A DNA stretch of 64,000 nt from Alphaproteobacteria bacterium (GCA_965216755.1 CBDCGL010000011.1:3317536-3381535); one strand, 5' to 3'. Positions 4,756 to 18,927 are shown, counted from the first letter of the stretch. Numbers and translations are program-made. The notes: generated by a model from the sequence alone, not told the origin.

Positions 4756-6307
4756 ACACCATGGCGATGTCGCGCGCGTCGGCGGCGGCAATCACCTCGT
4801 CGTCGCGCACCGATCCGCCGGGTTGAATGATCGCCGTGGCGCCGGCGTCGGCGGCGGCGATCAAGCCGTCGGCAAATGGGAAGAACGCATCTGAGGCGAC
4901 CACGGAATCGCGCGTGCGCGCGCCTGTTTCACCAGCCGCGCTGGCCGCGTCTGCTGCTTTCAGCGCGGCAATTCGGGTGGAATCGACGCGACTCATTTGG
5001 CCCGCGCCGATGCCGACGGTGGCGCCGTCGCGGGCAAACACGATGGCGTTTGACTTGACATGTTTGCAGACAGTGAAGGCGAAGCGCATGGTTTCGATTT
5101 CCGCGTCGGTTGGGGCGCGTTTGCTGACCACACGCAGGTCGTCATGTGCCAGCCGGTGATGATCGCCGTCTTGCACCAATAGGCCGCCGGCGACGGCCTT
5201 GACGACAGTTGCCACCGCCGGATCAGGCATCGAGCCGGTCAACAACAGACGCAGGTTCTTCTTTTCGGCGAACACGGCACGCGCGTTGTCGTCGGCCGCC
5301 GGCGCGATGACGACTTCGGTGAATATTCCGGTGATGGCGGCGGCGGTGGCGCCATCCAATGGGCGATTGACCGCGACGATACCCCCAAATGCACTGACCG
5401 GATCGCAGGCGTGGGCACGGGCGTAGGCATCGGCAAGCGTCGCACCGATGGCGACGCCGCACGGATTGGCGTGTTTGACGATCACCGTTGCCGGCTGTTC
5501 GAATTCGGCGGCCAGCGCAAATGCCGCGTCGGTATCGTTGATATTGTTGTAGCTCAGCTCTTTGCCTTGCACTTGTTCGGCCGTGGCGACACTCGGCTGG
5601 GCGCGGTCGGACACATAAAACGCGGCGCGTTGATGGGGGTTTTCGCCATAACGCAAGTCTTGTCGGCGGCTGCCGCCGAACGCCACATGGCGCGGAAACG
5701 GTTCGCCGACTTGGGCACTGAACCAGCCACTGACCGCCGCATCATAAGCGGCCGTGCGCGCGTAGGCGGCCGCCGCCAGGAGACGGCGCAAATCCGCGCT
5801 GATGGCACCGCCGCGGGCGGTGAGTTCGTCAAGCACCGTTTGATAGTCCGCCGGGTCGGTGACCACGGTCACGAAGGCATGGTTCTTTGCGGCCGCGCGG
5901 ATCAATGCCGGGCCGCCAATGTCGATATTCTCGATACACGCAGCGAAATCGCCACCACCTGCGACGGTGTTCTCGAACGGGTACAAATTGACGACCACCA
6001 AATCGATCGTCGGCACGTCATGTGCCAGCAAAGCATCTTGGTGCGACGCCATGTCGCGGCGCGCCAGGATGCCGCCATGGATGGATGGGTGCAGCGTCTT
6101 CACGCGCCCGTCGAGAATCTCCGGGAATCCGGTGACGCGCGCAACGTCTTGCACCGCAACTCCGGCTTCGGCCAATTGTCGCGCCGAACCGCCGGTTGAG
6201 ATCAATTCAATGCCACGATCGGCAAGCGCGCGTGCAAAAGGAACCAGATCGCGCTTGTCGGACACGGACAATAGCGCGCGCCGAATGATGGGGTCGGATG
6301 CCGTCAT
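4727..6307 (-). CDS. purH: bifunctional AICAR transformylase / IMP cyclohydrolase
   Basis: 526-aa protein; N-terminal MGS-like IMP cyclohydrolase domain ([29 protein letters not shown]) and C-terminal AICARFT domain. ATG at 6307. Confidence 0.93.
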
Positions 6308-13884: not shown

Positions 13885-14781
13885 TTACCAATGGGAAGGA
13901 TCTACGACCCCTTCAGGCAGATCGCGGCCGATGGTCAAGGCCGTGGCGATCAGGTTCGAGTCGAGCCGCGTGCCGGTGTCCGTCGATGCCGGCAACTGGT
14001 CTTTGCTATCGACTCCAACCACAATCGATGCCACCCCCGGCACCGCCCGCACAACGCCTATGGCCAATTGCCATGGCGACAAACCGGCGTCGCTGGCCAA
14101 GGCGTGCAAGCGCGCGACCGGTTCTTTAAGAGCGGCCAACCGTGCGGTGATCGCGTCCGGTTGTGCCAACAGCAGGCCCTGCAGAAACACGCTGCGCGCC
14201 CACACGAAGACCCCGGCCGTGGCCGCCTCTGCAATCACGTCGGAGCGGATAAAGGCCTGATTGAAAACATTGATGGGAATCTGCAGCAGACGCAGATTTG
14301 GCACGGCCAGCGCAGCACGGGCCTGCGCAACGGTATAGACCGAGGCGCCGAACGCCCCAACTTGACCTGTCTCGGCGGCGCGGCACAGCGTGTCGACGAT
14401 GTCGTTGCGCGCCAAATTGTCGGGCCGATGGGCAAGATAGCCGTCGATTCGCGCCGCTCCAAGCCGGCGTCGAGATTGGTCCAATTGGCGGTGGAGTTCC
14501 GCAGCGTCGCCGCAGTCGCCGAATTTACTGATCAACAAAGGCGTGTGGGCGCGCGTCCGGCGCCAGGCACCGATCCGCATTTCGGCATCGCCATAGGCGT
14601 GGGCGGTGTCAAAACAAGTCATTCCCGCCGCCCATGCGGCATCCAAGACCGCCAGGGCAGCCGCCTCTGTCGGTTTGCCTTCGCGGTTGGCAATACCATA
14701 GGCCATGCCGAGCTGGGCCGTCCCCAAGGTCAGCGTTGGGATCGATCGTTTGCCGGGGCCGGGGAATAGCTGATCTGCCAT
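13885..14781 (-). CDS. aldo/keto reductase family oxidoreductase
   Basis: 298 aa; AKR pattern (LGTAQLGMAYG ... FDTAHAYG). ATG at 14781. The antisense 292-aa ORF 13891..14769 is a shadow frame. Confidence 0.8.
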   Translation of the reverse strand: MADQLFPGPGKRSIPTLTLGTAQLGMAYGIANREGKPTEAAALAVLDAAWAAGMTCFDTAHAYGDAEMRIGAWRRTRAHTPLLISKFGDCGDAAELHRQLDQSRRRLGAARIDGYLAHRPDNLARNDIVDTLCRAAETGQVGAFGASVYTVAQARAALAVPNLRLLQIPINVFNQAFIRSDVIAEAATAGVFVWARSVFLQGLLLAQPDAITARLAALKEPVARLHALASDAGLSPWQLAIGVVRAVPGVASIVVGVDSKDQLPASTDTGTRLDSNLIATALTIGRDLPEGVVDPSHW

Positions 14782-14859
14782 GATCGTGATTTATGCGAAA
14801 GGTGTATCCTGCACCCGCGCCGCCGCAGGCGCGCACATAGAATAGGGTCGCCATCGTCG

Positions 14860-15621
14860 ATGATGCGCGCGATTTTTGAACAACTGCTGTTGGTGCCGAC
14901 GGTGCTGGTGTGGATTGCCGTGTTCGGTTTGCTGGTGTGGCGCTGGCGGCGTCTGAGCCTTGCGTGTCTAATCGCCGCCATTGGCGGCTTGTTTGTTTTG
15001 AGTTTGCCCATTGTCGCACGCGCGCTGCTGCTGCCGCTATTGGCGACGGTGACCTTGTATGACGGTGCCGATCTGGCCGGTGATATCATATTGGTTCCGA
15101 CCGCCGGCATATTTCGCGATGTCGAAGGGACGCCTTGGCCGTCGGCCGAAAGCATTCGCCGTGCCAGCCAAGGCCGGCGGATCCAAGTCCAGACCGGTTT
15201 GCCGTTGGCAATTATCGGCGGTGATCCGCAGGGAATCGGTGTCGCAGAGGCATTCGTCGTCGCCGACGCGCTCGGCGAAACGCCGGGGCCAGTCGTGATC
15301 GACGGTGCCGCCGACAACTCGATCGAAACGGCATTTGCACTGGCGCGCATCGTCCGCGAGATCGGCGGTCGCGAGGTCATACTTGCGACCACGCCGACCC
15401 ATGTCGCGCGCATGGCGGCCAGTTTACGCCGGGTCGGCGTGGTCGTTTTGGCCGATTTGTCCGCCCATCCGGCGCGGCAGCCCGTGGCGATCACGGACTT
15501 CCTCCCCAGCGCCGGTGGCCTCGCGCAAAGTCGCCATGTGATCCGCGAATATGCTGCGATTCTGTGGTATTTGTTCGACGGCTCCATTCGCGTTGGCGAT
15601 CTGCGGCCGGCAGCGGGCTAG
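14860..15621 (+). CDS. YdcF/ElyC-like DUF218 family protein (envelope biogenesis associated)
   Basis: 253 aa, N-terminal TM helices followed by a DUF218-like Rossmann-like domain (ILVPTAGIF... VIDGAADNSIETA). Confidence 0.6.
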   Translation: MMRAIFEQLLLVPTVLVWIAVFGLLVWRWRRLSLACLIAAIGGLFVLSLPIVARALLLPLLATVTLYDGADLAGDIILVPTAGIFRDVEGTPWPSAESIRRASQGRRIQVQTGLPLAIIGGDPQGIGVAEAFVVADALGETPGPVVIDGAADNSIETAFALARIVREIGGREVILATTPTHVARMAASLRRVGVVVLADLSAHPARQPVAITDFLPSAGGLAQSRHVIREYAAILWYLFDGSIRVGDLRPAAG

Positions 15622-15636
15622 TAAGGACGTGACACG

Positions 15637-16137
15637 GTGAAGCGCTGGTTTGTGGTTCATACGCGCGCCCATGGCGAACAGCGCGCCTACGAAAACCTCT
15701 GCCGCCAAGGTTTCGACGCTTGGTTGCCGCGCTACCGCAAGAAGCGCCGCCACGCAGGTCGCCTGGAAACTGTTTTGCGACCTCTCTTCCCCAGATATCT
15801 GTTTGTGTCCGTGGATTTGGCGGCCGAACGTTGGCGCGCCATCCTATCGACCTTTGGGGTCGCCGGGTTGGTGGGCGCCGTAGATGGCCCAGAGCCGGTG
15901 CCCGACGGCGTTGTCAACGCCTTGCGTGCGCGCGCCGACGCCGATGGCTGTTTCACGTTGCATCGGGCGGCGACGATGAAACCGGGCCAGCCGGTGCGTA
16001 TCGGCGCCGGCCCCTTTCAAGACATCGAAGGGATTTTTCAAGCCCCTAGCGACGCCGAGCGGGTGGTTATTCTGCTGCAACTGATGGGGCGCACGGTTTC
16101 GATCACCGTGCCGGCATCGGATATCGACGCGCTCTGA
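15637..16137 (+). CDS. NusG-paralog transcription antiterminator, RfaH-like (NGN + KOW domains)
   Basis: 166 aa; MKRWFVVHTRAHGEQRAYENL (NGN domain, compare RfaH WYLLYCKRGQ), PLFPRYLFVSVD (RfaH PLFPNYLFVEFD), C-terminal KOW-like GQPVRIGAGPFQDIEGIF. Encoded inside the glycan island, and an exact ops element occurs at 23100-23111. Confidence 0.8.
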   Translation: MKRWFVVHTRAHGEQRAYENLCRQGFDAWLPRYRKKRRHAGRLETVLRPLFPRYLFVSVDLAAERWRAILSTFGVAGLVGAVDGPEPVPDGVVNALRARADADGCFTLHRAATMKPGQPVRIGAGPFQDIEGIFQAPSDAERVVILLQLMGRTVSITVPASDIDAL

Positions 16138-16147
16138 TGTTTCGGTG

Positions 16148-16253
16148 TTTCGGCATTTCGGTGACAGTTTACTAAATACACCATATTCAGCGTATTCTCG
16201 GCAGGCACTACAGCTTGTGGTGTATTTAGTAAACTGTCACCGAAATGCCGAAA
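16148..16253. repeat. perfect 36-bp inverted repeat (arms 16148-16183 and 16218-16253, 34-nt loop) flanked by tttcggtg-type 8-mer repeats; fills the convergent gap between the rfaH-like gene and cysQ
   Basis: Read directly: TTTCGGCATTTCGGTGACAGTTTACTAAATACACCA ... TGGTGTATTTAGTAAACTGTCACCGAAATGCCGAAA, no mismatches. Three tandem 8-mers (tttcggtg tttcggca tttcggtg) on the left are mirrored on the right. No U-tract on either side. Confidence 0.9.
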
Positions 16254-16255
16254 TA

Positions 16256-17029
16256 TCAGGCGCCGCGGGCGATGAAAAAGCCGTTGCGGAAATCCGTCTT
16301 GCCGTAAAGAAACGGTTCGTCGTCTGGCGTACGTACGCTGCCGCCTGCGGCCAACAATACCGCATGACCGGCCGCGGTGTCCCATTCCATGGTTGGTCCG
16401 AAACGAGGATATAGATCGGCCTCGCCCAGGGCGACCACACAGAATTTGTAGGACGAGCCGGCCTGGTGCAGACCGGCGACACGAACGGATTTGAGCCAGG
16501 CTTCGGTTTCGGCGCTGAAATGGGAGCGACTGGCGACCACCGTCGCCCCATCCGCCGGGGCGGCCCGAACATGTATGGGTTCGATCGGGCCGTCGCCCTG
16601 CCGGCGAAATGCCTGACCGGGCGTATAGCCCCAGACCAAAACATCTTTGGCCGGCAGCTGCACGACCCCCAGAACCGGCAGGCTGTTTTCGATCAACGCG
16701 ATGTTCACCGTGAATTCGTCGCGGTTCTTGATGAACTCCTTGGTGCCGTCCAGCGGGTCGACCAGCCAAAACAAATCATTGTCCGGAATGCCGGCGGCCA
16801 CCGACTCGGTACTTTCCTCAGACACGATCGGGATATCCGGGGTCAAGGCCCGCAGGCCGTCGACGATGACCCGGTTAGCGGCCAGATCCGCCTCGGTCAC
16901 CGGCGAGCGGTCATCCTTGGTCTCGACGGTGATGCCACGCGCGCGCACGGCCAGGATTTCGCGTCCGGCGCGGCGCGCGATATCGCAAATGGGCGGCGCC
17001 AACGCCGCCAGATCAATGGTATCTGTCAT
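16256..17029 (-). CDS. cysQ: 3'(2'),5'-bisphosphate nucleotidase (PAP phosphatase)
   Basis: 257 aa, inositol-monophosphatase fold motifs ([17 protein letters not shown]). ATG at 17029 overlaps the cysNC stop. Confidence 0.85.
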
Positions 17030-18927
17030 ACCGTGTACTGAAACCGCTGGTCGATATACGTCAAGATTTCACGGGCGCAGTCATCGACCGACCGCGCGGC
17101 CGTGTCGACGACCAAATCCGGCGTCTCGGGCAATTCATAAGGTGCACTGACGCCGGTGAACTCGCTGATTTCGCCCTTGCGCGCGCGCTTGTACAGGCCT
17201 TTGGGGTCACGCGCCTCACAGGTTGCCAAATCAGCCTTGATATAGACTTCATGAAAACCACCCTCCAAAGACAGCCGGTCGGTGGCTTCGCGGGCACGGT
17301 GGCGGTCGGCGCGATAGGGCGAAATAAACGCCGTCAGAACGATCATGCCGGCATCCGCGAACAAGGCGGCAGCTTCGCCAACCCGGCGAATATTCTCGGC
17401 GCGATCTTCCGGCGAAAAGCCGAGATTGGCGTTCAGGCCCATCCGGACATTATCGCCGTCCAGCACATAGACATGGTAGCCGCGGGCGAACATCAAGCGC
17501 TCGACCGCGCGCGCCAGGGTCGATTTGCCGGCGCCGGACAGGCCGGTGAACCACACCACGCCGCCGCCATGGCCGTTCCGCTTGCTTCGCGCGTCCTCGT
17601 CGATCGTGCCGCGTTCTTCATAGACATTGGTCGACTTGACCGTGATCAACGAGCGCTGATCCGGATAGCCTTCCATGCTGACAATGCCGCCGCCGGCGAT
17701 CTCGTAACCGTCGACCAAGACAAAGCGTCCGGTGCGCGGATTGCGGGCATATTCATCCAAAGCGAGCATCGATCGCGCTCGCAGCACGACTTCGCCGACG
17801 GTGTTTTGCTCCATGCGGTCGGCGGCGACATGGTCGAGGGATTCGGAATCGATCGCATGTTCAATCGACTGCACGGTGACCGCCGTTTCGATGGTGTTGA
17901 GCTTGAGCTTGTATTGGTTGCCCGGCGCCAGCGCCCGCTCGCCCAGCCAAAACACACGCGCTCGAAACACGTTTGACTCAACCGGCGGGCGGTCGATATG
18001 GCTGGCAATTTCGCCACGCTCGACAAACAGCTGCTCGTCCAGCGTCACGCCGACCGATTGGCCGGCGCGCACTTCGATCGGTGGGTCGGCGTGCCAGGCC
18101 TCAATCGAGCGGACCCGCGCGGTCTTGTTCGACGGCGAAAACAACAAAGTATCGCCGACGCGCACAATGCCACTTTCGATACGGCCCGCGAAAATGCGCC
18201 GTTCGTCGAATTTGTAGACGTCTTGGACGGCAAATCGCAGCGGCAGATCGGTCGGTGGCGGCAGTGGCTCGAAGCCGTCCAACGCCTCGAGCAGGCCCGG
18301 GCCCTCGTACCACGGCGTGCGTTCGGAATTGACGACGATATTGTCGCCTTCCCGGGCCGACACCGGTAAAACATGTCGCGGTGTCACGCCCAGTTCGCTC
18401 AAATAAGCACAGAATTCCTTCTCGACTTGCGCGAAACGGCCGGCGTCATAATCGATCCGGTCGATCTTGTTGATCACCAGGATCACCTGCGTGATGCCCA
18501 AAAGGTGCAGCAGGTAACCATGTCGGCGCGACTGCTCGCGCACGCCTTCTTCGGCGTCGATCAACAACACCGCGGCGTCGGCGGCCGCGGCGCCGGTGAC
18601 CATGTTGCGCAGGAATTCTTTGTGGCCGGGCGCGTCGATGATGACATAGTCGCGCAAGGCACTGCGAAACCAGATGTGGGCGGTATCTATGGTCACGCCC
18701 TGATCGCGTTCACCCTGCAAGGCATCGGTCAGAAACGCCCATTCGAAAGGCATGCCGCGGCGTCGACACATCTCTTGTATGGCCTCGAACCGACCCTCGG
18801 GCAAACTGCCGGTGTCGTGAAATAACCGTCCAACCAAAGTCGATTTGCCGTGGTCGACATGGCCGACAATGACGATCCGCAATGGATCGCCCAACGGCGC
18901 CACGGGGTGTGTTTTGCGCGCTGCCAT
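17026..18927 (-). CDS. cysNC: bifunctional sulfate adenylyltransferase subunit 1 / adenylylsulfate (APS) kinase (CysN-CysC fusion, NodQ-like)
   Basis: 633 aa; N-terminal GTPase ([11 protein letters not shown]) of the CysN type and C-terminal APS kinase P-loop ([15 protein letters not shown]). Confidence 0.9.

Follow-up and report, generated by a model that had tools for sequence, protein, structure and literature searches.

The Correia elements of Neisseria and the ERIC elements are small palindromic, non-coding insertions that lie between genes and are transcribed as long hairpins. Closer to the element described here are repeats that accompany transposases of the Y1 (HUH) type. REPINs are non-autonomous and consist of inverted units which, together with a short spacer, make up a long hairpin; a related Y1 gene, the RAYT, is flanked by such units or dimers, and the arms are more conserved than the spacer (Bertels & Rainey 2011, PMC3116915). 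[quoted passage not shown] 2013, PMC3733652). No REP-like partner sequences have been reported for the TnpAY1 subclass 2.1 (Quentin et al. 2018, PMC6006769); by RAYT group 1 we mean the group set out by Bertels et al. 2017 (PMC5581495).

Here we analyse a long palindrome between two convergent genes in a 64-kb window (by window we mean the whole stretch of DNA that was analysed, 64,000 nucleotides). With a probability of about 85%, we consider it to be a gene-less TIR dimer of a TIRtron, that is, a REPIN- or MITE-like element with no transposase gene within it.

To the left of the palindrome lies the gene of a NusG paralogue (15637..16137, + strand; Pfam NusG, 2.7e-20) with its stop codon at 16135-16137, and to the right lies cysQ (16256..17029, - strand; TIGR01331 CysQ, 277 bits, above the cut-off) with its stop codon at 16256-16258. 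Both stops are TGA, both sit within the base of the imperfect palindrome, and 118 bp separate them. An earlier reading, made from the sequence only, had the element fill this convergent gap, which the ORF ends confirm. It had also called the upstream gene rfaH-like: the gene does encode a NusG paralogue, but the NCBIfam model for RfaH gives it 121 bits, below the cut-off of 144.5. The same reading was right that two overlapping ORFs share one peptide, FRHFGDSLLNTP being encoded in both of these spurious ORFs (16145-16414 on the + strand and 16038-16769 on the - strand). The genes themselves form part of a conserved block (window 13885-18927, L036:794-5778; about 60% protein identity) of an aldo/keto reductase, a DUF218 (ElyC-like) protein and the NusG paralogue, with cysQ and cysNC converging on the latter; the first codon of cysQ and the stop of cysNC overlap (17026-17029). 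The presence of a specialised NusG paralogue beside genes for sulfate activation may hint that the locus serves a sulfated polysaccharide.

The inverted-repeat scan places the left arm of the palindrome at 16148..16183 (+) and the right arm at 16218..16253 (-), each of 36 nt and 100% complementary to the other, around a loop of 34 nt (16184..16217), exactly the mismatch-free geometry that had been described before. In a scan of the 64-kb window this is the longest inverted repeat and the sole perfect one of its size, the next best being 24 nt long at 88%; a match to the 28-mer core of the arm was found in none of 100 shuffles. If an 8-bp indel is allowed, pairing runs on imperfectly to CTGAT (16134-16138) and ATCAG (16255-16259), the folds pairing CUGAU with AUCAG, and the whole element thus extends over 16134..16259. 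Either strand gives one long hairpin, with an RNA folding energy of -76.3 kcal/mol for the + strand (z -13.8), -71.2 kcal/mol for the - strand (z -13.6) and a DNA folding energy of -43.8 kcal/mol. The G+C content of the arms is about 39% in a neighbourhood of about 60-70%, which points to imported sequence.

Neither strand has a T/U tract after the stem, where we find TATCAGGCGCC (+) and CACCGAAACATCAG (-), and at 36 bp the stem is far longer than terminator stems; in both respects the earlier description holds. The big hairpin was not called by the terminator scan. What the scan did flag is a 6-bp stem followed by GGTGTATTTA inside the loop (16201-16218, +), probably a chance call, with 3 terminator-like sites in the region against 1.6 expected. 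There is no direct repeat at the flanks of the element (CTGATG on the left, TATCAG on the right) that would mark a target-site duplication; Y1 enzymes are expected to leave none, in contrast to what is seen with DDE-type MITEs. Rfam has no gathering-level match across the whole window; its sole match, to the plant miRNA-hairpin model MIR2587 (44.7 bits, threshold 75.5), was dismissed as a generic match to a long stem. A sigma-70-like promoter that we suspected by eye inside the repeat unit was dropped as well, a scan having found no promoter-like site in the window copy of the unit.

Each arm contains a unit of about 33 bp with the consensus AATTACGGTGACAGTTTACTAAATACACCAAATT. With an nhmmer profile built from 34 units, the left TIR unit (ATTTCGGTGACAGTTTACTAAATACACCATATT) is found at 16155..16187 (+; 43.2 bits, E 6e-12), its inner end CACC facing the loop, and the right unit, which is inverted and likewise has its inner end towards the loop ("-> <-"), at 16214..16246 (-; 42.0 bits, E 1.4e-11). 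Apart from these two arms, nothing in the 64-kb window matches the profile, so that the window has no further copy of the unit. Taken alone, one unit does not fold significantly (DNA, -2.5 kcal/mol, z -1.3; equalled by 22 of 200 shuffles) and is therefore not a palindrome of the REP type.

The unit is widespread. In a scan of one genome per species its 20-nt core GACAGTTTACTAAATACACC matched exactly at 33 loci, a count that, like those from the metagenome scan below, is a lower bound and biased to conserved copies, because exact cores were needed. Alpha-, Beta-, Gamma- and Zetaproteobacteria account for 32 of these loci and a Bacteroidota MAG for one. Conservation reaches beyond the 20-mer that was searched, from about -8 to +24, and ten units have the TTTCGG variant that is seen in the window. 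The element was matched neither in the plasmid collection, in near and distant modes (we saw one short and unrelated match to cysQ), nor in viral contigs, and the unit sequence is absent from the searchable literature and from the supplements of PMC3733652 and PMC6006769.

In the Bacteroidota MAG (Puia sp., L018:3417-3444), the sole non-proteobacterial genome with a core match, the unit has a different outer part (ATTAGTGGTG) and a TIRYT is not nearby; this match may reflect a genuine transfer, contamination or mere coincidence over 20 nt. In one Mariprofundus MAG, about 110 nt inside the unit are nearly identical, with one short indel, between L005:683-719 and L011:2469-2503; the unit is here the end of a larger repeated element without a directly adjacent TIRYT, and a distant TIRYT-like ORF (37% identical) lies about 2.4 kb off at L011.

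At four loci (L003, L017, L020 and L033) two inverted units, 679-688 bp apart, enclose an ORF of 218-224 aa, which starts about 15-25 nt inside one unit and has its stop in the inner edge of the other. The enclosed protein matches Pfam Y1_Tnp (2e-8) and the E. coli TnpArep structure (PDB 4er8); with NCBIfam REP_Tyr_transpos it scores 73.9 bits, under the cut-off of 80. Compared end to end, it is 55% identical to bbt5382 and 54% identical to gsu2396, both listed as TIRYTs by Di Nocera et al. (2013), but only 23% identical to the E. coli RAYT. Its motifs (NHVH, WQ, Y..NP and a WSS tail) are those of TnpAY1 subclass 2.1, or RAYT group 1 (Table 1 in PMC6006769). As an independent test we took four TIRYT genes picked solely by protein similarity, and all four are bracketed by inverted copies of this very unit. 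A protein search finds at least 7,992 TIRYT relatives that score E <= 1e-20. In the 64-kb window, on the other hand, there is no TIRYT gene (best tblastn E of the TIRYTs, 0.04). The downstream unit of the TIRtrons ends with CACT-TAATT, and both arms in the window are of the "CACC" type, which is the one upstream of the gene.

Some further observations concern the surroundings of these genes. Among the matches listed, the close TIRYT homologues (P0122-P0240) are mostly on contigs of about 0.7-2 kb, hardly longer than a single TIRtron, which suggests that assemblies break at the flanking repeats and hence that the units are multi-copy in those samples. L020:4971-6254 has tandem TIRYT copies, one of them a complete ORF of 218 aa and the other a stretch of 157 aa that is 97% identical, with units at 4971-4999(+), 5504-5531(+) and 6216-6254(-); a TIRtron seems to have been duplicated here locally and not long ago. 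At L013:2289-2645 three units of the same orientation are found within 360 bp, with a 77-aa TIRYT fragment (79% identical) between them, either a cluster or a decayed TIRtron.

Gene-less dimers are found elsewhere too. Among the first 33 loci, pairs of the form "-> <-" occur in L026, L023, L031 and L019, their units being separated by 8-125 nt. When metagenomes were scanned for two cores at a distance of 9-39 nt, 14 contigs were obtained, which yielded nine distinct dimers of 93 nt with an inner distance of 37 nt and one more, in L045, with 34 nt; the corresponding distance in the window is 38. The perfect arms of these dimers are 29-34 nt long and their loops 25-34 nt, as compared with 36 and 34 nt in the window. 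Up to four dimers per 5-14 kb are seen on the metagenome contigs, and in L037, L040, L044 and L049 the TIRYT gene itself is bracketed by dimers. Between dimers the arms are 87-93% identical and the loop centres 56%, measured only at positions outside the search pattern, as one would expect if selection (recognition) acts on the arms. The loop of the window element is unrelated to the loops of the other dimers. A possible homology of this loop to the 5'-UTR or 3' end of a TIRtron was considered and rejected; there is just a weak CAAGCTG-TGTG likeness to L033, on which we do not rely. Dimers elsewhere occupy varied contexts and not only convergent gaps, while that of L045 again abuts the ends of two convergent ORFs. 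No direct repeat is evident at the other dimers. There is also a second dimer form, in which units truncated at the inner side make perfect arms of 28-29 nt around a loop of 3 nt (L037:1194-1254 and 2240-2298, and also L040, L044 and L049); these tight dimers adjoin ordinary ones with loops of 25-31 nt and the TIRYT gene.

A further feature of the element is the repetition of the outer 8 nt of its units. Two extra copies, TTTCGGTG and TTTCGGCA, lie outside the left unit (16140..16155, +), and one extra copy, again TTTCGGCA and thus with the GT>CA variant already seen on the left, lies outside the right unit (16246..16253, -). In total TTTCGGYR occurs five times within 114 bp, three times on the left (16140-16163) and twice on the right (16238-16253). 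The sequence-only reading had the tandem 8-mers of the left mirrored on the right; there are indeed repeats on both sides, but their numbers differ. In the window as a whole the 8-mer is about twice as common as in shuffles (31 against 16), the other occurrences being single copies scattered inside genes.

We see the same in the family at large. Reiteration of the outer end within 52 nt outside the unit was found for 24 of 68 non-redundant units, as compared with 2 of 68 in a control on the inner side, and it follows that the 8-mers are a property of the repeat family and not the binding array of a regulator. In many genomes, the units are preceded on their outside by partial copies that always take in the outer end and extend from there over 8 to at least 15 nt; in L017, L033, L038, L052 and L054, ATTACGGTG is repeated 2-4 times. 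We infer that the reiterations stem from abortive or repeated cleavage and rejoining, or from re-initiation, at the outer end. That the variant TTTCGGCA is common to both arms of the window element suggests either that one of them served as the template for the other or that the dimer was afterwards propagated as a unit. Since both arms are of the CACC type and both carry this atypical copy, a simple internal deletion of a TIRtron is not a direct explanation, and copying from arm to arm, or propagation as a dimer, must therefore be assumed.

For the history of the locus we can compare the window with L036, a syntenic relative in which cysNC and cysQ converge on the nusG-like gene and DUF218, followed by the aldo/keto reductase. 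Here 27 bp lie between the stops and there is no unit. The proteins are 59-61% identical (the NusG-like protein 61%), and their ends differ: in L036 the NusG-like protein ends with DASG* and CysQ with ARGAE*, in the window with DAL* and ARGA*, respectively. Judged from these sequences, the difference fits an insertion into or beside the gene ends, at a distance too large for a reconstruction. The nearest CysQ proteins in the protein database are 59-63% identical, so that the source genome has no close relative there. L034 and L035 were considered as empty-site comparators and rejected, as they are not syntenic.

How well does the element compare with the known systems? Like the TIRtrons (PMC3733652), the family has a Y1/HUH gene between long non-REP inverted repeats at fixed distances, and its repeats are found away from the gene too, as singles, dimers and clusters. 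In a comparison confined to the motif, the GGTGACAG of the unit is a candidate for the reported TIR motif GGGGWSAS, with which it agrees at 7 of 8 positions. On the other hand, the near-invariance across classes, the fixed geometry of the dimers and the outer-end reiterations of the present unit are not described there (PMC3733652, PMC6006769), and the window has an orphan dimer alone, with no cognate TIRYT in 64 kb. A canonical REPIN, i.e. two inverted REPs of the GTAG type that are mobilised by a single-copy RAYT of group 2 or 3, would have the same architecture of inverted units, short spacer and long hairpin, an associated protein that is a RAYT relative, and arms that are more conserved than the loop. 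However, the present unit lacks the GT[AG]G tag (there is no GTAG or GTGG at its end), and it is not a palindrome, a lone unit folding insignificantly (-2.5 kcal/mol, z -1.3). Its protein belongs with the TIRYTs (group 1 / subclass 2.1), with 23% identity to the E. coli RAYT and a score below the NCBIfam cut-off, and the unit is nearly invariant across bacterial classes whereas REPs are lineage-specific. We thus regard a canonical REPIN as very unlikely. Even less probable is a classical MITE, an internally deleted DDE-type IS with TIRs and a target-site duplication: the element is small, non-coding and intergenic and has terminal inverted repeats, but the flanking direct repeat is missing, and the gene between these TIRs elsewhere codes for a Y1/HUH enzyme and not for a DDE transposase. 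The same differences (no target-site duplication, a HUH and not a DDE parent) set the window element apart from the Correia and ERIC elements, to which it is not known to be similar in sequence. Of the four candidates that the sequence-only reading named without deciding between them, the "MITE-like" one is nevertheless borne out, in that the arms are the TIR of a transposase element present in many genomes, gene-less dimers recur, and the gap in L036 is only 27 bp long. As a label, "MITE" applies loosely; given the parent and the lack of a target-site duplication, "TIR dimer" or "REPIN-like" is more exact.

One could think of an RNA structure that evolved in situ to regulate the nusG-like gene and cysQ, be it a bidirectional terminator without U tract, a stabilising 3' hairpin or an RNase III site. 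The hairpin is very stable on both strands, fills the convergent gap and touches both stops, it shares with intrinsic terminators the position of a stem-loop directly after the stops of convergent genes, and the dimer of L045 is placed likewise. Yet it differs from intrinsic terminators in its 36-bp stem of 39% G+C, far beyond terminator length, in its 34-nt loop and in the missing U tract. It belongs to no Rfam family, and its composition is foreign to the neighbourhood. Moreover, the syntenic L036 copes with a 27-bp gap, dimers elsewhere are found in varied contexts, and dozens of genomes have the TIR unit at loci unrelated to this one, where it flanks transposase genes. An origin in situ is, on this evidence, as improbable as a canonical REPIN, and the locus-specific regulatory structure that had been proposed from the sequence is unsupported as an origin; a role of the RNA structure may be an acquired, secondary effect. 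Least probable of all is an array of binding sites (iterons or operators) for a host regulator, with the 8-mers as sites, although five TTTCGGYR copies within 114 bp and the twofold excess of the 8-mer in the window might suggest it. What the 8-mers repeat is the outer end of the TIR unit, as is seen in a third of the units of the family, with repeat lengths that vary elsewhere from 8 to at least 15 nt; the other 8-mers in the window are scattered singly inside genes, and the site is at the 3' ends of two genes, with no promoter-like site found. The regulator-binding array among the earlier candidates thus finds no support as an origin either, the 8-mers being outer-end reiterations typical of the family. 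If anything binds them, it is likely the cognate TIRYT.

We therefore prefer the reading as a gene-less TIR dimer: a putatively mobile element, selfish DNA of a sort that is already known, which did not arise in order to regulate the nusG-like/cysQ locus. By analogy with the TnpA of IS200/IS605 and the TnpA-REP of E. coli, both of which act on single-stranded DNA, the dimer would form a long hairpin whenever it is single-stranded, for example on the lagging-strand template. A cognate TIRYT would then recognise the conserved unit and cut and rejoin the dimer in trans, and by the same analogy it would act on the outer TT(A/T)C-GGTG end, where the partial copies pile up. Insertion into the short convergent gap would have left the element as it is now, abutting or supplying both stop codons. 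Once transcribed, the hairpin would provide a 3'-end structure for both convergent mRNAs that starts at the stop codons, probably as a by-product. Such a 3' hairpin could act as a barrier to exonucleases or to read-through, or as an RNase III substrate. It might also hinder the decoding of the termination codons; E. coli REPs near stop codons reportedly cause ribosome stalling and impede the decoding of the termination codon.

One can go further and suppose that the unit and its dimers of fixed geometry are a true REPIN-like replicating population of the Y1 transposases of group 1 / subclass 2.1, with a recognition sequence that is near-invariant across proteobacterial classes. The outer-end TT(A/T)C-GGTG pile-ups would then be the scars of cutting and rejoining, and in the present locus the element would have supplied both TGA stops and a bidirectional 3' hairpin that tunes the NusG paralogue and cysQ. 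Taken as a whole this picture is tentative and rather unlikely to be correct.

In summary, what seemed to be a puzzling "regulatory" palindrome in this genome turns into the relic of a mobile element, which also explains why two spurious ORFs share a peptide. Its kind is already known (TIR repeats of TIRtrons, REPIN-like), while the specific unit is new to the searchable literature. We know of no biochemical study of TIRYT or group 1 RAYT enzymes; the conserved 33-bp unit, its geometrically uniform hairpin dimers and the repeats of the outer end offer substrates and a predicted cleavage region for work on TIRYTs in vitro. Finally, the element illustrates how insertions can form the last codon, the stop and the 3' structure of two convergent genes together.
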